4,709 nucleotides of DNA from a virus (lineage: Duplodnaviria > Heunggongvirae > Uroviricota > Caudoviricetes), in IMG/VR virus record IMGVR_UViG_2690316142_000012, positions 1-4,709 of that record. One strand, written 5' to 3'. The position numbers were made by a program, and so were the translations under genes. Position 1 is the stretch's first letter; each line of letters opens with the position of its first letter. Below the pieces are notes generated by a model. It made no database searches. It was not told the DNA's origin and saw only the letters and a program-made list of their open reading frames with translations. Positions 1 to 4,709 of the stretch are shown here, piece by piece.

Positions 1-30
1 TCTTAAGTCCAAACGGACAGGAGATTTAAA

Positions 31-324
31 ATGAAATTCACTTCAACCACGAATCATGTTTTCACATTCGAACGAGTAACGCTTTGCACGATTGTTCTTA
101 TTCATAAGGATACGGGACAACAGTATGTTGTCATATTTACGGATAACAATAAAATTCGTGACTATAAGACCGGAATTGTTTCTCAGTTTGGTGAACTTAA
201 GCAGAGTGATATTGATTTAATTCTTTTCTATCGGGACGAATATGAAAAATATTTTGACTCGTTAAATAATGGCGAGGAGTATTTGAGTTTTAAAGAATAT
301 ATCGGATGTATAAGGGGAAAATAA
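31..324 (+). CDS. hypothetical small protein (97 aa), no recognisable domain
   Basis: ATG at 31 preceded by AGGAG at 19..23 (7-nt spacing); uninterrupted 97-codon ORF; AT-rich codon usage typical of horizontally acquired morons; followed by further small ORFs and a terminator at 562..590. Confidence 0.6.
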   Translation: MKFTSTTNHVFTFERVTLCTIVLIHKDTGQQYVVIFTDNNKIRDYKTGIVSQFGELKQSDIDLILFYRDEYEKYFDSLNNGEEYLSFKEYIGCIRGK

Positions 325-327
325 ATT

Positions 328-387
328 ATGAAAGGTGTGTTCAGGTTGCTGGAACAACCTGAACACGTTATCGACAATCAAAACTGA
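328..387 (+). CDS. possible micro-ORF (19 aa, MKGVFRLLEQPEHVIDNQN)
   Basis: ATG at 328 lies 9 nt after AAGGGGA (312..318), 3 nt after the stop of the 97-aa gene; too short for the ORF track; coding status uncertain. Confidence 0.2.
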   Translation: MKGVFRLLEQPEHVIDNQN

Positions 388-400
388 ATGAGGTTTTTAA

Positions 401-538
401 ATGTCAACACGACAGATCGTACAGCTTGCTGACTCCCTTGTCAAAGGCTGGGAAACCAGAATTCCGGCAATGACGTGCACGGAGTGGGATCAATTCCGGT
501 GGTGGTTAAACTACCTGCAAGGGTATGAAATGTTTTAA
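401..538 (+). CDS. possible small protein (45 aa, Trp-rich: MSTRQIVQLADSLVKGWETRIPAMTCTEWDQFRWWLNYLQGYEMF)
   Basis: ATG at 401 preceded by GAGG at 390..393 (about 8-nt spacing); ORF ends at TAA 536..538, 24 nt before an intrinsic terminator hairpin; below the ORF-track size cutoff. Confidence 0.35.
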   Translation: MSTRQIVQLADSLVKGWETRIPAMTCTEWDQFRWWLNYLQGYEMF

Positions 539-561
539 ATAACCGGGATAAATTCATATAT

Positions 562-590
562 GGGGAGAGTGTCATGCTCTCCCTTTCTTA
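562..590 (+). terminator. intrinsic terminator for the plus-strand small-gene operon
   Basis: Stem GGGAGAG (563..569) / CTCTCCC (577..583) with 7-nt loop, followed by TTTCTTATT. Confidence 0.55.
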
Positions 591-608
591 TTGGGTAGCG
601 AGTTGTAT

Positions 609-657
609 TACATATTTAGCTTTACGTTGTAAAGATTTTATTGTCTTTACAGTGTGG
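609..657. repeat. bipartite palindromic element, copy 1 (CTTTAC-GTT-GTAAAG at 620..634, then CTTTACAGTGTGG at 645..657); candidate operator
   Basis: Perfect 6-bp inverted arms with 3-bp spacer; second half-element starts 16 bp after the first element ends; same architecture at copies 2 and 3; shares ATTACATA..AGCTTTAC lead-in with copy 2. Confidence 0.7.
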
Positions 658-735
658 TGCGTTTTCCGGCGGTTGCGCTGCGCTTAGGGGTATGTGGCTT
701 CGATGATCCAGGGTATTTCGACGTAATGCGTTGTA

Positions 736-1179
736 TTACGATGTATACTCTTTAATTGCTTGCAATCTCTTTTCACGTTCGTTGCTTTGTTGGGCCTTTT
801 CCAGTTGGCTGTATATGTACTCTTCATCTTTACCCGTGAGTATTGAGCCGGAGAGCAGACGATTAATAACTATACGTTTAATTTCTGGGTAATCTTTGGT
901 TTTATCGAGTATGGACAATATGTGGTCACTGCTAAGAATTATCCCACTCCATGAGTCTAAATAGCTCTTAAAAATCACAATCATAAACACACCGAAAAGC
1001 ATTATGATGATTGTTACCACATTAATGCTAAACGTTGATATAAAGGTATACGCGGCCACACCAATTATTGCTAAACAGAGACATAAATAAATGAAACCGA
1101 TTTTGTTGCGTTGCTTTTTTTCTGCACGATCATGATCATCTATGATTTCCAGTATCTTTTCTGGGATTAGTTGAGTCAT
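736..1179 (-). CDS. small membrane protein (147 aa), two predicted transmembrane helices, ~77-aa soluble C-terminal domain; function unknown
   Basis: ATG at 1177..1179 (minus) preceded by AAGGAA with ~5-nt spacing; two hydrophobic stretches (IGFIYLCLCLAIIGVAAYTFI and VVTIIIMLFGVFMIVIF) separated by a short loop; charged N- and C-termini. Confidence 0.7.
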   Translation of the reverse strand: MTQLIPEKILEIIDDHDRAEKKQRNKIGFIYLCLCLAIIGVAAYTFISTFSINVVTIIIMLFGVFMIVIFKSYLDSWSGIILSSDHILSILDKTKDYPEIKRIVINRLLSGSILTGKDEEYIYSQLEKAQQSNEREKRLQAIKEYTS

Positions 1180-1211
1180 TTTCTTTCCTTATTTGGGACA
1201 CGGAGTGTTTA

Positions 1212-1260
1212 ATTACATAGCTTTACATTGTAAATCTATGTTTGTCTTTACGATGTAAAT
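1212..1260. repeat. bipartite palindromic element, copy 2 (CTTTAC-ATT-GTAAAT at 1221..1235, CTTTAC-GAT-GTAAAT at 1246..1260); candidate operator over the membrane-gene promoter/leader
   Basis: Same 16-bp spacing between elements as copies 1 and 3; sits between the membrane-protein start codon (1179) and a candidate minus-strand promoter. Confidence 0.7.
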
Positions 1261-1287
1261 GATGAGATGTGCAGTTAAAAGTGTCAA
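1259..1287 (-). promoter_or_regulatory. candidate sigma70 promoter for the membrane-protein gene
   Basis: On the minus strand: perfect -35 TTGACA (plus 1282..1287), 17-bp spacer, -10 CATCAT (plus 1259..1264); the transcript would start inside repeat copy 2. Confidence 0.3.
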
Positions 1288-1359
1288 TCAGATATCATAT
1301 AGTAAAATACTATATTATTTTCTATGTATCACATACACAGCGATAAAACTGGATAAATG

Positions 1360-1397
1360 ACTTACACTGTAAAGATTGAGCTGTCTTTACAGTGTGG
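1360..1397. repeat. bipartite palindromic element, copy 3 (ACTTAC-ACT-GTAAAG at 1360..1374, CTTTACAGTGTGG at 1385..1397); upstream of the hicA promoter
   Basis: Second half identical to that of copy 1 (CTTTACAGTGTGG); same 16-bp spacing. Confidence 0.65.
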
Positions 1398-1423
1398 TTC
1401 ATAAGGCATACGAATGAAATAAT

Positions 1424-1452
1424 TTGCCTTTGTGTGTATGCGTGTGTATAAT
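1424..1452 (+). promoter_or_regulatory. candidate sigma70 promoter of hicAB
   Basis: -35 TTGCCT (1424..1429), 17-bp spacer, consensus -10 TATAAT (1447..1452), about 24 nt upstream of the hicA ATG; spacer is an alternating purine-pyrimidine tract (TGTGTGTATGCGTGTG). Confidence 0.5.
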
Positions 1453-1475
1453 TATCCTCAGGTTAGGGAGGACAT

Positions 1476-1658
1476 ATGAAATCTGCTGACCTGTTGAAAG
1501 AACTGATAGCTGCTGGTTGCGAGTTGAAACGGCATAAGGCAAGCAGTCACCAGATATGGTGGTCGCCAATAACAGGAAAAACTTTTCCTGTTCCTCATCC
1601 TAAAAAGGACTTGCCGCTAGGTACTGTCAGATCGATCAAAAAAATGGCGGGGATTTAA
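1476..1658 (+). CDS. hicA: HicA-family type II toxin (mRNA interferase), 60 aa
   Basis: GGGAGG RBS 4 nt upstream of ATG; protein has HicA hallmarks: small size, a His-containing segment (SSHQIW) and the characteristic C-terminal PHPKKDLPLGTVRSIKKMAG motif; immediately followed by a HicB-like gene. Confidence 0.9.
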   Translation: MKSADLLKELIAAGCELKRHKASSHQIWWSPITGKTFPVPHPKKDLPLGTVRSIKKMAGI

Positions 1659-1666
1659 TCCCCGCC
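1646..1666 (+). other. perfect 9-bp stem hairpin spanning the hicA stop codon (GGCGGGGAT-tta-ATCCCCGCC)
   Basis: Inverted repeat read directly; hicA TAA stop (1656..1658) sits in the loop; no T-run follows, so not a simple terminator; 7 nt upstream of the hicB RBS. Confidence 0.5.
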
Positions 1667-1682
1667 GACTTTGGAGGTAGCC

Positions 1683-2120
1683 ATGTTCTTTTCTGTTGGT
1701 GTCGAAACACCGAAAGATGATCATACAGCATACGGTATCACCGTTCCGGTTTTTGATTGCTTTGATTTTGGATGTGTTTCTGCTGCTGATTCTCAGGCAG
1801 AAATACCCGCAATGGCGCGTGAAGCGATATTGGCAATCGTGGAAGAGATGGTAATAAGCGGTGCTCATTCTGTTGATGATATTCATGATGAAGGGTGTTT
1901 GACTTATTCCGCCAACCCAAATTATAACCACTGTGATAGCTGGTTTGTAATTGATGTTGATTTGTCAGAAATTGAGGGCAAACAACAACGTATTAATATT
2001 TCATTGCCTGATGTATTGATTCGTCGTATTGATGGATATGTGAGAGAAAGTGGTGGCGTATACAAAGATCGTAGCCATTTTCTGGCTCAGGCGGCACGTC
2101 ATGAACTTGCATATAAATAA
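1683..2120 (+). CDS. hicB: HicB-family type II antitoxin (145 aa) with C-terminal ribbon-helix-helix DNA-binding domain
   Basis: ATG at 1683 with GGAGG (1673..1677) 5 nt upstream (ORF track extends to a TTG at 1671); N-terminal HicB-like region and C-terminal RINISLPDVLIRRIDGYV...RSHFLAQAARHEL typical of RHH (CopG-like) domains; directly downstream of hicA. Confidence 0.85.
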   Translation: MFFSVGVETPKDDHTAYGITVPVFDCFDFGCVSAADSQAEIPAMAREAILAIVEEMVISGAHSVDDIHDEGCLTYSANPNYNHCDSWFVIDVDLSEIEGKQQRINISLPDVLIRRIDGYVRESGGVYKDRSHFLAQAARHELAYK

Positions 2121-2124
2121 AACT

Positions 2125-2152
2125 ATCCCCGCGTTGTGCGGGGATTTTTTTT
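2125..2152 (+). terminator. strong intrinsic terminator after hicB, probably bidirectional
   Basis: Perfect 8-bp GC-rich stem ATCCCCGC (2125..2132) / GCGGGGAT (2138..2145), 5-nt loop, then T8 (2145..2152); on the minus strand the same hairpin is followed by AGTTTTATTTAT, so it may also end the convergent minus-strand operon. Confidence 0.8.
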
Positions 2153-2159
2153 GATAGCT

Positions 2160-2221
2160 AACCGCTCGCCGCAGTCCAGCGACCGAGCATAGCGAGCGAG
2201 TGACGAGGAAGCGGAAGATCC
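2160..2221. other. segment resembling ColE1/pMB1-type plasmid backbone sequence (origin-proximal region of pBR322/pUC)
   Basis: From memory of the pUC/pBR322 sequence (ACCGCTCGCCGCAGCCGAACGACCGAGCGCAGCGAGTCAGTGAGCGAGGAAGCGGAAGA): the window has ACCGCTCGCCGCAG..CGACCGAGC..AGCGAG..CGAGGAAGCGGAAGA in the same order; roughly 80-85 percent identity by eye, not computed. Confidence 0.45.
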
Positions 2222-2250
2222 ACCGTTGCCAGGAGAAAAGCAGGTACGCA

Positions 2251-2571
2251 CTATGCGTTCTGCCCTAGTGATGCTTTCACAAACCACGCAGCCTGAACTA
2301 TTACGCCATGAATCCAGCGCAAATCGGCATCACGATTTTCTTTTTTCATTTTTTCGCCACTTAAAGCCTTGCTTACGTGACTTTTTACCAGATTTTCGTG
2401 TAATTCTTTTGCTTCTTCAATTGTGAAACCACCAGGCAAATTTGGCGCTTCTGCTTCCAGCGATGCCAGTGCGATTTCATAAGCCCGACGCTCAATATTG
2501 TCTCGGACGTCCAGGCTGCCTATACGCTCTCTGATTTCTTTAATCAGTTCTTTGTCGGTTAAAGTGGTCAT
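2251..2571 (-). CDS. hypothetical prophage early-region protein (106 aa); N-terminal module shared with the 136-aa protein
   Basis: ATG overlaps the stop of the upstream 171-aa gene (ATGA); AAGGAA RBS 7 nt upstream; shares the motif IALASLEAEA and a 19-nt nucleotide identity with gene 3385..3795. Confidence 0.7.
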   Translation of the reverse strand: MTTLTDKELIKEIRERIGSLDVRDNIERRAYEIALASLEAEAPNLPGGFTIEEAKELHENLVKSHVSKALSGEKMKKENRDADLRWIHGVIVQAAWFVKASLGQNA

Positions 2572-3083
2572 GCTGCGTTTCCTTCTTTCTTATTAACAAT
2601 TACACCGTCATATATTTCATTAAGGTGTCCTCTTAGCTCCATGCGCCTTAATGCAGATAACATGTAATCGCATTCAACCTGCTTATTCCCAGTAAATGGC
2701 TTATCGTCAGGATTACCCCAACAGCAATTACCCCTGGGCCATCCATGTACTTTCCGTACTCTTCCGTTAACAACGTGAAGTAATCCCCAGCCGGGAGGTA
2801 AATCCTCAACTGAAATAATTTCCGGCTCACTAATAAAGAATCGCCAGTCGCCCATGCCAAGTGAGGGATTTTTACGGAAACGCTTTTTTCTATCTGCCAA
2901 CAAGTCAGCACGAGAACACTTCGCCTCTATCAGGCATGATGCTGAATTTCTGAATCCCATAGCATCTGGCTGTTCTCCGGTACTGGTTACAGCAACAAAG
3001 CGGTCATGAAAGCAAACCTTGAACCCGTTGCGCTTAAGGAACTTGTACGCAATCTGACAGAGTTCGTGGTGTGTTAACGCCAT
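2568..3083 (-). CDS. PD-(D/E)xK nuclease-like protein (171 aa), possibly MmcB-like; tentative
   Basis: Start at ATG 3081..3083 (MALTHHELCQ) preceded by GGGAAAGGAAAGTGAT; motif order E...PD(AMGF)...(L)IEAK(CS) matches the PD-(D/E)xK nuclease core; the ORF-track N-terminal extension (MGKESD) is probably not translated. Confidence 0.7.
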   Translation of the reverse strand: MALTHHELCQIAYKFLKRNGFKVCFHDRFVAVTSTGEQPDAMGFRNSASCLIEAKCSRADLLADRKKRFRKNPSLGMGDWRFFISEPEIISVEDLPPGWGLLHVVNGRVRKVHGWPRGNCCWGNPDDKPFTGNKQVECDYMLSALRRMELRGHLNEIYDGVIVNKKEGNAA

Positions 3084-3119
3084 ATCACTTTCCTTTCCCA
3101 TGTTGTCATGTGTTAGTCC

Positions 3120-3383
3120 TTATCCTGCTGTGCTTTCAACTGATGAGGGGAATAAAATCTTTTCATCAAATCCGGCATTCATATCATGGACAGCAACACA
3201 CCAATCCATCGACGAACGATTATCAAGAGCCTCCATGATTTCATCCATGCGGCGCAGGTCATACAGGTAAATGCTTTTATCGCCAATGGTGTAAAAACCA
3301 ATTTTTTTCGGTGATGGGCAGCGATCAAGAACGTCCTGTAATTCGTTCAACCATGCCCGTTCTTTTTTTGTTAAAGTTGCCAT
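3120..3383 (-). CDS. hypothetical prophage early-region protein (87 aa)
   Basis: Start at ATG 3381..3383 (MATLTKKERAW) preceded by AAAGGAGAGTGAT; the upstream gene's stop lies 1 nt before this ATG (TGA-T-ATG); the longer ORF in the track is an out-of-frame read-through of the upstream gene's 3' end. Confidence 0.7.
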   Translation of the reverse strand: MATLTKKERAWLNELQDVLDRCPSPKKIGFYTIGDKSIYLYDLRRMDEIMEALDNRSSMDWCVAVHDMNAGFDEKILFPSSVESTAG

Positions 3384-3396
3384 ATCACTCTCCTTT
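3242..3396. repeat. 155-bp exact direct repeat, copy 1 (identical to 4555..4709)
   Basis: Base-by-base identity read from the sequence; covers the RBS and first 47 codons of the 87-aa gene; left boundary is sharp (3241 T versus 4554 A). Confidence 0.95.
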
Positions 3397-3795
3397 CCCA
3401 TGAAGCATAGCGGCGCGGCAGGCGTTCCAGCCTGTAGCGTATGCAGCCGCTTTGCTGCTGCCTTCAACTGGCGCATCCTGCCAATACATTTCATCCGGCA
3501 CTACCGGCGCTGGCAAGGCTGCGTGATAGTAGAGTGGCATAGTTTTGTACAGTGGTTCGCCAGGACTTCCGTCAACCTGATTCCATTCTTCAACCCAGGC
3601 ATCAACAACCGCTTTGCTGGTTGATACATGTTCTTCTGAATCTACATTTTGTCCTGATATACAGAACATAACTGCCTCTGCTTCCAGCGATGCCAGAGCA
3701 ATTCGTGCCAGTTCCATTTGTTCGCCACGAGTAAGTCCGTTATCAAGCGGATTTTTAATGAATAATTTGATACGTTCTTTGGTTATAGCGTTCAT
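3385..3795 (-). CDS. hypothetical prophage early-region protein (136 aa); N-terminal module shared with the 106-aa protein
   Basis: Start at ATG 3793..3795 (MNAITKERIK) preceded by AAGGAGAGTGAG; the upstream 203-aa gene's stop lies 1 nt before it (TGA-G-ATG); contains ELARIALASLEAEA. Confidence 0.7.
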   Translation of the reverse strand: MNAITKERIKLFIKNPLDNGLTRGEQMELARIALASLEAEAVMFCISGQNVDSEEHVSTSKAVVDAWVEEWNQVDGSPGEPLYKTMPLYYHAALPAPVVPDEMYWQDAPVEGSSKAAAYATGWNACRAAMLHGKGE

Positions 3796-3796
3796 C

Positions 3797-4408
3797 TCAC
3801 TCTCCTTTGATGCGAATGCCAGTAGCGCGGATTGCATCGATGACTTCAGAAACTTTGTATGCCATTACCGTTTGGTAATCATCGTGAAAATCTGTTCGAT
3901 GAAGCATGCTGCTACGTTCCGGGAGCGATATTTCCCGAGCATCCAGTTCCTTAACGCGCTCCTCCAGTTCGTAGACCCTGCATTGTTCTCTATCATCAAT
4001 CAGATATAACCCAAGACATTCGCTTTCTACCCAACCGCCAAAATCATGATCGTAACGCTCACATGAAAACTCACCGTCACCGTCCTTTGTTGGAATGGTG
4101 TAACTATCTAATGGGCCACCATATGTCGGCACATTTCCCAATGTTGGATGCTCAATCCACATGAAAAATGCACGTCCGGTTATTGGGCAAATATCTGGCC
4201 GCCATTGGTTACGAACAGCCTTGGTTTCGGATAATTCTTCAGCGTGTTGTTTTACTTCCTCAAGCTCGTATCGCTTCAGGTTTGCGATATTTGATAAATT
4301 CAGCGCCAGTACAGCCAGGTCATAAACCTCTTCGGCAGTGACATCGCTGTTCAGTCCCATTTCATGGCGATATATGATTTTTTCTACTCGTTGTTTTGTG
4401 ATCGTCAT
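3797..4408 (-). CDS. hypothetical prophage early-region protein (203 aa); possibly ead/Ea22-like, unverified
   Basis: Longest ORF in the operon; preferred start ATG at 4406..4408 (MTITKQRVEK) with GGAG 11 nt upstream; ORF track extends to a TTG at 4432; ends KGE-stop within the RBS of the next gene. Confidence 0.65.
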   Translation of the reverse strand: MTITKQRVEKIIYRHEMGLNSDVTAEEVYDLAVLALNLSNIANLKRYELEEVKQHAEELSETKAVRNQWRPDICPITGRAFFMWIEHPTLGNVPTYGGPLDSYTIPTKDGDGEFSCERYDHDFGGWVESECLGLYLIDDREQCRVYELEERVKELDAREISLPERSSMLHRTDFHDDYQTVMAYKVSEVIDAIRATGIRIKGE

Positions 4409-4516
4409 TTTTCTCTTCACTCCGATATACAAGGATTACCACACCCCCTCTGCTGATTGCGCGAGCTGGATCCCCTGGTTCCATGCCGTCAATTCCGAAG
4501 GCTTCGGAAAACGCAT

Positions 4517-4696
4517 TCATTGCCTTCTGGCGTTCATCCTGCTTACGGCGTTTACATCCATGCGGCGCAGGTCATACAGGTAAATGCTTTTATCGCCAAT
4601 GGTGTAAAAACCAATTTTTTTCGGTGATGGGCAGCGATCAAGAACGTCCTGTAATTCGTTCAACCATGCCCGTTCTTTTTTTGTTAAAGTTGCCAT
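4517..4696 (-). pseudogene. truncated chimeric duplicate of the 87-aa gene (first 47 codons identical, then 12 unrelated codons and a stop; 59 aa)
   Basis: Lies in copy 2 of the 155-bp repeat; translation from ATG 4694..4696 gives MATLTKKERAWLNELQDVLDRCPSPKKIGFYTIGDKSIYLYDLRRMD then VNAVSRMNARRQ-stop; the preceding 4698..4709 encodes a KGE-stop gene end as at 3385 and 3797. Confidence 0.4.
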
Positions 4697-4709
4697 ATCA
4701 CTCTCCTTT
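4555..4709. repeat. 155-bp exact direct repeat, copy 2 (identical to 3242..3396); continues to the window edge
   Basis: Offset of exactly 1313 bp from copy 1; true extent unknown because the window ends. Confidence 0.95.

Follow-up and report, generated by a model that had tools for sequence, protein, structure and literature searches.

This work describes three copies of a bipartite palindromic DNA element in a stretch of 4,709 nucleotides (positions 1 to 4,709 of IMG/VR virus record IMGVR_UViG_2690316142_000012), hereafter referred to as the window, and considers which protein is likely to act on them. The elements lie on either side of a gene for a predicted membrane protein, whose product gave weak family matches only, and upstream of the toxin-antitoxin genes hicA and hicB (Table 1). 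Promoters mentioned throughout are predictions from a sigma-70 consensus scan. Copies 1, 2 and 3 span 620-659, 1221-1260 and 1360-1399 of the window sequence, about 40 bp each. Every copy is a pair of 15-bp palindromic boxes (CTTTAC-N3-GTAAAG) separated by 10 bp, which puts the box centres at a distance of 25 bp. In the window copies, the inner half-sites (GTAAAG-N10-CTTTAC) show a sole departure, GTAAAT in copy 2, and are otherwise perfect; those on the outside are degenerate in copies 1 and 3. When 15 boxes of one plasmid were tabulated, T4, A5 and C6 as well as G10 and T11 proved invariant, and a T precedes the GT in 14 of the 15; inner half-sites again proved stronger than outer ones.

A repeat search of the window groups the copies into one three-copy family. 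The pattern CTTTAC-N3-GTAAAG-N10-CTTTAC, with at most two mismatches, matches the window at 620, 1221 (1230 on the other strand) and 1360 only, and gave zero matches in 200 dinucleotide-preserving shuffles of the window. The three bipartite copies described in a first-pass annotation, made from the DNA letters without database searches, are thus borne out by the sequence, the repeat family and the shuffles alike. Their coordinates were correct, except that the elements run about 2 bp further to the right, because the second boxes have degenerate outer halves in copies 1 and 3. The 16-bp distance it had given holds from the start of GTAAAG to the start of the next CTTTAC, but not as a gap, which is 10 bp.

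Table 1. Coordinates of the boxes, genes, promoters and related features. Positions refer to the window unless another locus is named.
Feature	Position	Strand	Details
Copy 1, left box	620-634		CTTTACGTTGTAAAG; CTTTAC (620-625), GTT, GTAAAG (629-634); perfect
Copy 1, right box	645-659		CTTTACAGTGTGGTG; CTTTAC (645-650), AGT, GTGGTG (654-659); degenerate outer half
Copy 2, left box	1221-1235		CTTTACATTGTAAAT; CTTTAC (1221-1226), ATT, GTAAAT (1230-1235); complete
Copy 2, right box	1246-1260		CTTTACGATGTAAAT; CTTTAC (1246-1251), GAT, GTAAAT (1255-1260); complete
Copy 3, left box	1360-1374		ACTTACACTGTAAAG; ACTTAC (1360-1365), ACT, GTAAAG (1369-1374)
Copy 3, right box	1385-1399		CTTTACAGTGTGGTT; CTTTAC (1385-1390), AGT, GTGGTT (1394-1399)
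Diverged 3' remnant of the ~330-bp GC-rich repeat	660-722	+	664-722 corresponds to the final ~60 bp of the full-length repeats
Membrane-protein gene, 147 aa	736-1179	-	annotated as hypothetical protein WP_000192626.1; leader holds copy 2
Predicted membrane-gene promoter	1259-1287	-	TTGACA (1287-1282), N17, CATCAT (1264-1259); 10/12 consensus matches
Weaker promoter-like site	1275-1303	+	TTAAAA-N17-TATAGT; 9/12 matches; between copies 2 and 3; would read through copy 3
Predicted hicA promoter	1424-1452	+	TTGCCT (1424-1429)-N17-TATAAT
hicA	1476-1658	+	Pfam HicA_toxin, E 1e-15; downstream of copy 3
hicB	1683-2120	+	Pfam HicB_lk_antitox, E 1e-26
Five-box parA array	L001 17231-17340		holds the promoter TTTACA-N16-TACAAT
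Occupied slot after copy 1 in other IncI2 lineages	L008 1660-2370; L006 1660-1985		

Copy 2 had been noted to overlap the leader of the membrane-protein gene. It does, and its right box additionally covers the -10 and the start site of the predicted promoter of this gene, which would be a classical position for repression. Copy 3, described at first pass as lying just upstream of the hicA -35, is indeed upstream of it, at roughly -100 to -60, but its end is separated from the predicted -35 by 25 bp, so there is no classical overlap. The starts of copies 2 and 3 are 139 bp apart and the two copies flank a divergent promoter region of about 100 bp. The predicted hicA promoter carries a direct repeat of its own, GTGTGTAT-GC-GTGTGTAT (1432-1439 and 1442-1449, 10-bp period), in the spacer and part of the -10; this repeat is plausibly a better candidate for the HicB operator than the boxes. 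No gene follows copy 1 in the window. Just before copy 1, a terminator-like hairpin, GGGGAGAGTGTCATGCTCTCCCT, with a T-rich tail (562-584) ends the plus-strand open reading frames (ORFs) 31-324 and 401-538.

The replicon was identified by searches against phage, genome and plasmid collections. The phage database matches only the right part of the window, with its ead/Ea22-like genes (2255-4709), and positions 1-2250 found nothing in phage records except a 58-bp vector-like stretch and a distant hicB. Among complete E. coli genomes, positions 1-2250 occur at 1038 places on plasmids versus 9 on chromosomes, with 80% or more of the query present in 63 genomes. In PLSDB, the window matches plasmids of about 60 kb typed as IncI2, MOBP and MPF_T, such as pHN1122-1; the best matches cover just 81% of the window, in 3-4 pieces, and the segment 2251-4709 varies between IncI2 lineages. 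Positions 1-2250 are the backbone of ~60-kb IncI2 conjugative plasmids (pHN1122-1, mcr-1 plasmids). The prophage setting assumed at first pass is rejected, as this segment is found near-exclusively on plasmids and without a relevant match in phage records. On the map of pL9-3, repA, hok and a ProQ/FinO gene are followed by two minus-strand genes, a small hypothetical one and parA ('MipZ'), and then by a J-domain gene, an Xre-type antitoxin pair, the window genes (small ORFs, the membrane gene, hicA and hicB), traL-like genes, and the relaxosome and relaxase genes. In plasmids RP4 and R64, the side of the origin of transfer opposite the relaxase operon is the first to enter the recipient. By analogy, the window would belong to the maintenance/leading region.

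The same boxes are found elsewhere on IncI2 plasmids, with their largest array at parA. The gene that follows parA encodes a CopG-like protein of 94 residues, a candidate ribbon-helix-helix (RHH) protein. In pHN1122-1 (62,196 bp), boxes with at most two mismatches are clustered at 4164-13601, a stretch of 9.5 kb, with two isolated two-mismatch matches elsewhere. They occupy six separate places: the interval between the parA stop and the start of the RHH gene (one box plus an extra GTAAAG), an array upstream of parA, a pair at 10969 that adjoins a GC-rich repeat, and the three window copies. The arrangement GTAAAG-N10-CTTTAC occurs six times in pHN1122-1, versus 0.25 expected from shuffles. In pL9-3, the array upstream of parA consists of five boxes with centre spacings of 25, 20, 25 and 25 bp, and the best candidate for the parA promoter is composed of box halves. 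The DnaJ-domain gene of IncI2 plasmids is divergent from parA and shares this main array. It is virtually certain that the window elements belong to the box family of the parA array. The same motif is thus present at several separate promoters of one plasmid, as in a set of dispersed operators.

Conservation was examined in 9-12 distinct IncI2 sequences per copy, taken from all fetched loci, with the search-anchor hexamer left out of the count. In five diverged IncI2 lineages (85-92% identity), the hexamers are kept while the N3 centres and the 10-bp spacers change. Variable positions number 5 of 54 in the hexamers, compared with 13 of 30 in the spacers (Fisher p 5.5e-4) and 37 of 120 in the flanks (p 0.002), where the p-values are indicative only, the variants being related sequences. 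Copy 1 is kept in 12 distinct variants, with changes confined to its N3 centre, spacer and flanks, and copy 3 is likewise kept in 12. At 1230-1235 of copy 2, 7 of 9 distinct variants have GTAAAG, so the T of the window is the minority form. Absence of the motif from orthologous regions had been named at first pass as an outcome that would speak against operators; the hexamers are instead maintained across IncI2 variants.

What follows the copies is less constant. The slot after copy 1 (~660-735) is a cassette hot spot that holds a second hicAB, an orphan hicB or nothing, depending on the IncI2 lineage. In pMCR_J9_7, copy 1 is followed by a repeat remnant, a strong predicted promoter (TTGACA-N17-TATAAT) and a second, unrelated hicAB, and in pSLy21 by a repeat remnant and an orphan hicB-like ORF. 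Copy 3 of pMCR_J9_7 directly precedes an orphan hicB, for which the promoter-like site at 1275-1303 is, speculatively, the only candidate promoter. Box pairs thus appear to head exchangeable modules. The suggestion that the copies mark the ends of an acquired cassette gains partial support from the exchangeable content after copy 1 and from a 25-bp loss within copy 3 of one lineage.

To follow the motif beyond IncI2, homologues of the RHH protein were collected by tblastn on plasmids and by a pattern-based scan of species-representative genomes; a word-index search gave close relatives only. The tblastn search returned homologues from IncX3 plasmids (~55% identity) and from an Erwinia plasmid (51%), and the genome scan added five more with 50-56% identity (Apirhabdus, Serratia fonticola, Rahnella, Morganella and Symbiopectobacterium). 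In eight related plasmids, arrays of 4-16 RTAAAG hexamers lie immediately upstream of parA, spaced by 9, 11 or 16 bp. The five genera from the genome scan have 4-15 hexamers apiece at this place, the IncX3 array counts 16 RTAAAG/CTTTAY hexamers in 250 bp (spacings of 9, 11, 16 and 25 bp) and the Erwinia plasmid has 16, plus five between parA and the RHH gene. Boxes between these two genes are also present in the IncX3, Apirhabdus and S. fonticola plasmids. GTAAAG-N10-CTTTAC recurs within the related arrays, and some occurrences are near-identical to the window copies, such as GTAAAGATACTTTTGTCTTTACAGTG of IncX3. In IncX3, a bipartite site (45680-45721) lies just upstream of the promoter of the DnaJ-domain gene, after a GC-rich element like that of IncI2. 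The order on the S. fonticola plasmid is a GC-rich element, boxes, a promoter (TTGATA with an extended-10 TATAAT) and the DnaJ-domain gene. A second box target beside parA is therefore conserved across plasmid groups, which argues for regulation and not for centromere function alone.

A scan of public metagenomes by exact pattern match yielded 72 contigs, of which 30 are IncI2-like and about 15 IncX-like. The remaining 27 are isolated matches with no enrichment of hexamers, such as a collection of this size would yield by chance. In the ~15 IncX-like contigs, the match is part of a dense hexamer array; 13 of them carry parA and the RHH gene, one carries parA only and one is too short for either. 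Among 2.9 million viral contigs, there was a single exact match, isolated, without a hexamer array and without a parA or RHH gene. The box motif travels with the parA/RHH pair, because arrays co-occur with both genes in the related plasmids and in the metagenome contigs. The first-pass annotation had proposed to look for a regulator gene that accompanies the motif, and across plasmid groups this pair does so.

The product of parA, which lies outside the window, is a deviant-Walker-A ATPase of 221 aa (KGGVGKS). It matches the CbiA/MipZ/ParA Pfam families and the NCBIfam model ParA_partition (E 3e-29, under the cut-off of the model). Like type Ib proteins, it is a small ParA without an N-terminal DNA-binding domain. 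The 94-aa protein, recorded as WP_001162371 and WP_001542021, matches Pfam RHH_1 with an E of 0.02, below the gathering score, and five of six homologues match as well, the best at 2e-4. Several homologues are labeled 'CopG family transcriptional regulator' by NCBI. A low-confidence AlphaFold2 monomer, built from a shallow alignment, has residues 1-19 at a predicted local distance difference test score (pLDDT) below 50 and, after the presumed strand, helices at 44-59 and 63-76 with a pLDDT of 73-89. The Asn and Arg of the predicted β-strand, which would read the DNA, are invariant across the family. Gene order, protein sizes and promoter-embedded repeats of the IncI2 locus correspond, as far as sequence can tell, to a type Ib partition cassette, and the 94-aa RHH protein is the likely regulator acting on the boxes. 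The IncI2 system has been termed a 'putative parA partitioning system' (PMC8053102).

We interpret the window elements as secondary operator and centromere-like sites of the RHH protein of a type Ib partition system (a small Walker ParA plus the 94-aa RHH protein), with a probability of roughly 0.7. With much the same confidence, we expect that the RHH protein binds the elements and that at least copy 2 is regulatory. The recognized unit would be the hexamer GTAAAG/CTTTAC, at a spacing of 9 bp (CTTTAC-N3-GTAAAG) or 16 bp (GTAAAG-N10-CTTTAC), to which RHH dimers would bind cooperatively. The primary site would be the five-box array containing the parA promoter, where binding would both silence parA, as autoregulation, and assemble the partition complex. 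Via the scattered box pairs, the RHH protein would also bind accessory and leading-region modules. Occupancy of copy 2 would cover the -10 and start site and repress the membrane-protein gene, copies 2 and 3 may act jointly on transcription towards hicAB, and copy 1 would be the upstream control box of the cassette slot, which is empty in the window lineage. Because a newly transferred plasmid arrives without repressor, we infer a burst of expression upon entry, followed by silencing as the partition protein accumulates.

In this light, the first-pass proposal of operators for one regulator stands in its core, as the same boxes build the parA promoter and their hexamers are conserved; the replicon it assumed was wrong, and the proteins it named are poor candidates. 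Nor is the probable regulator local, since the RHH gene lies to the left of the first base of the window, by ~3.5 kb in pL9-3 and ~7.3 kb in pHN1122-1.

Several observations weigh against this interpretation. The RHH fold is assigned only from profile matches that are marginal or below threshold and from a monomer model of low confidence; sequence searches of the PDB with the 94-aa protein gave no significant match, and the best Foldseek match of its model, CopG, was insignificant (E ~9). No publications on the IncI2/IncX RHH protein or on these boxes were found in the literature searched. For copies 1 and 3 and for the pair at L001 19496, the nearest good sigma-70 promoter begins only 25 to ~400 bp further downstream, so simple steric repression accounts for copy 2 and parA only. 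In pMcp0221, recombination between the two boxes of copy 3 has left one hybrid box and removed 25 bp, hence copy 3 is less constrained, and the relatedness of the variants tempers the footprint statistics. IncX1 plasmids encode an RHH homologue, 44-47% identical and with the same Asn/Arg strand but a different N-terminus, as a third gene immediately after parF/parG, which has ACTC repeats upstream. A complete IncX1 plasmid has no RTAAAG boxes anywhere. The link between protein and motif is thus not one-to-one: either the IncX1 homologue has another target or the box binder is not the RHH protein. It is mainly because IncX1 keeps an RHH homologue without boxes that our confidence is no higher. 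The IncX1 homologue itself may be the leftover of a replaced partition cassette or a regulator with another target.

The scattered pairs could alternatively be extra centromere sites only, which enlarge or multiply the partition complex or pair plasmids, without a role in transcription. The parC1/parC2 sites of pB171 and the dispersed sopC sites of N15 work as such extra sites. Most pairs overlap no good promoter, copy 1 has no downstream gene in the window, and each pair offers four half-sites, four contiguous repeats being the minimum that activates ParA in pSM19035 (PMC9499535). We nevertheless consider a purely centromeric role unlikely: copy 2 sits on a promoter -10/+1, a box is found beside the promoter of the DnaJ-like gene in three plasmid groups, and all pairs lie in one 9.5-kb stretch by the main array, where they would add little to partition. 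It is also compatible with the dual role that we prefer, since centromere and operator functions of RHH proteins usually coincide (PMC9499535). That the boxes are operators of a different regulator, be it HicB, the upstream Xre-like antitoxin or the DnaJ-domain protein, is very unlikely. HicB does have a C-terminal RHH-type domain, copy 3 lies upstream of hicAB and a box pair directly precedes the orphan hicB of pMCR_J9_7. Yet the largest arrays are at parA in every lineage, including an IncX3 plasmid without annotated hicAB, two unrelated hicAB types occupy box-flanked IncI2 slots and the hicA promoter has its own direct repeat. The same distribution disfavors HicB and phage repressors, the binders put forward at first pass. 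Boxes and a DnaJ-domain gene do occur together in IncI2, IncX3 and Serratia plasmids, and IncX1 has no such gene annotated, but the J-domain protein here has no known sequence-specific DNA-binding fold.

The palindromic nature of the elements raises a further option, namely that they act as hairpins in single-stranded DNA on the transferred strand, as part of the leading-region signals for single-strand initiation or promoters, or that they bound cassettes as hot spots of recombination. The ~40-bp imperfect palindromes are more stably folded than shuffled sequences (z -2.7 to -4.9), and next to box pairs there is a 330-bp GC-rich repeat whose minus strand folds more stably (z -3.5) than its plus strand (z -1.5). 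The cassette content varies after copy 1, and one lineage has a 25-bp deletion between the boxes of copy 3. However, stem stability is low (-5 to -11 kcal/mol), the fold differs among the three copies, and conservation tracks the hexamers instead of the pairing. IncX-type arrays use the hexamer as direct repeats 11 bp apart, unable to form hairpins, and any two adjacent palindromic operators automatically form an inverted repeat; we hold this option to be highly improbable. Chance similarity or a non-functional duplication relic is scarcely credible: copy 1 does lack an obvious target in the window lineage, and one lineage has lost part of copy 3, but none of the 200 shuffles matches, the hexamers are conserved against variable spacers, and the same box grammar recurs in plasmid groups with only ~50% protein identity.

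Some known sites and regulators were also compared and set aside. A TyrR box (TGTAAA-N6-TTTACA) fails on spacing, as the first-pass annotation had recognized, since the half-sites here are N10 (GTAAAG to CTTTAC) and N3 (CTTTAC to GTAAAG) apart. A resolvase res site is suggested by the position of the IncX3 and Erwinia arrays between a resolvase gene and parA, but IncX1 has the same arrangement without boxes and IncI2 has boxes without an adjacent resolvase. VirBR, a published IncX3 regulator, is a different protein with a different AT-rich site. A search against Rfam gave nothing relevant.

The GC-rich repeat of ~330 bp is present in full length at L001 17340-17700 and 19560-19900, after box arrays. 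Its relatives at L005 45760-46000 (IncX3) and L017 13950-14090 (Serratia) precede the boxes of the DnaJ-like gene. As single-stranded DNA, its minus strand is more stably folded than shuffled sequences (z -3.5), unlike its plus strand (z -1.5), and the 77-aa ORFs annotated within it gave no family matches. The repeat may serve the transferred strand as a promoter or initiation signal in single-stranded form. A bolder version of our interpretation, which we regard as a long shot, makes the RHH protein common to IncI2 and IncX3-type plasmids an undescribed master 'establishment switch': toxin-antitoxin, DnaJ-like and early genes would fire once on entry and then be locked by the partition complex. 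The boxes would be wired to each leading-region module beside the conserved GC-rich element that folds on the transferred strand. Two adjacent boxes can fold into one duplex box, so the RHH protein might recognize the incoming single strand.

The right part of the window (2251-4709) carries minus-strand genes of ead/Ea22-like and DUF551 type with 94-97% identity to those of Shiga toxin-converting phages and phage P7; these phage genes sit in the IncI2 backbone between hicB and the traL-like genes. Two of the minus-strand ead/Ea22-like genes have their start and the sequence upstream of it within copies of a 158-bp direct repeat (3239-3396 and 4552-4709, 99% identical). The second copy is cut by the end of the window, and a related 34-bp motif is found at 3775-3808. 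Just past the hicB terminator, 58 bp (2161-2218) are 85-90% identical to a segment of many vector-contaminated 'phage' records. We take this stretch to resemble the primosome assembly (n'/PriA) site of ColE1/pBR322, CCGCTCGCCGCAGCCGAACGACCGAGCGCAGCGAGTCAGTGAGCGAGGAAGCGGAAGA. A single-strand initiation signal at this position would fit a leading region.

Resistance to colistin (mcr-1) and to carbapenems (NDM-5) has some of its most successful carriers in IncI2 and IncX3 plasmids, the main vehicles of mcr-1 and blaNDM-5. If a single small protein is responsible for plasmid segregation and, through these boxes, also controls the toxin-antitoxin and early-entry genes, the boxes provide a testable map of the circuit. 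The protein would then also be a single target, and its titration by cloned boxes, or its loss, should destabilize the plasmid and deregulate the accessory genes. Independently of this, the annotation context is corrected: the hicAB region is plasmid backbone and not prophage. The boxes and the RHH protein would form a system that is uncharacterized in the literature searched, of a kind (a partition RHH protein with repeats) that is already known.

In function, the closest likenesses to the putative system are StbA of the IncW plasmid R388 and omega of pSM19035. The latter is an RHH-type ParB whose heptad arrays overlap the copS, delta and omega promoters (PMC9499535). In the omega system as in the present one, a small Walker ParA is encoded beside a small protein, which is of RHH type in omega and a candidate RHH protein here; the repeats are short (6-7 bp) and occur in direct and inverted orientation, and there are several arrays per plasmid. 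The omega arrays coincide with promoters and function as centromeres and operators at once, a toxin-antitoxin operon being among the units controlled (PMC9499535). The repeat itself differs (GTAAAG versus WATCACW), as does the spacing, with hexamers 9, 11 or 16 bp apart here and heptads contiguous at 7 bp in omega. Moreover, the present host is Gram-negative and the secondary sites are box pairs, often off a promoter. No sequence relationship between the two proteins was found, and no test aimed at one was made. StbA is a helix-turn-helix (HTH)-type protein that reads 9-bp direct repeats. It belongs to a different protein family, and a parA ATPase is encoded here. StbA of R388, together with ArdK, is a segregation protein that represses its own operon and the establishment/leading-region promoters PardC, Porf7, Porf12 and Porf14 (PMC3937220; PMC3098194). 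Such repression leads to an overshoot of expression after transfer (PMC3937220). In one report, StbA is described as the key protein of a segregation system without a plasmid-encoded nucleoside triphosphatase partner (bioRxiv 10.1101/2022.04.29.490116).

In gene order, the IncI2 locus is like ParG/parH of TP228 and type Ib cassettes, in which a small ParA is followed by a small RHH protein that has a flexible tail at its N-terminus; the second protein of the IncI2 locus is a candidate for this type, with a tail predicted to be disordered. The par2 locus of pB171 is another such type Ib partition cassette. For TP228-type systems, centromere/operator repeats are described upstream of parA that include the promoter and confer autoregulation (PMC3130281). 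ParG differs in reading ACTC-type tetramer boxes, IncX1 has a ParG system alongside the present RHH homologue, and no dispersed regulon is described for ParG. KorB of IncP plasmids, with its operator OB, is a partition protein whose palindromic sites are scattered at or away from promoters and which coordinates maintenance and transfer genes. Unlike the 94-aa RHH-type protein considered here, KorB is a ParB of the large HTH type, able to spread or slide along DNA; the likeness lies in the palindromic sites, which in both cases are scattered over the plasmid, at promoters or away from them.

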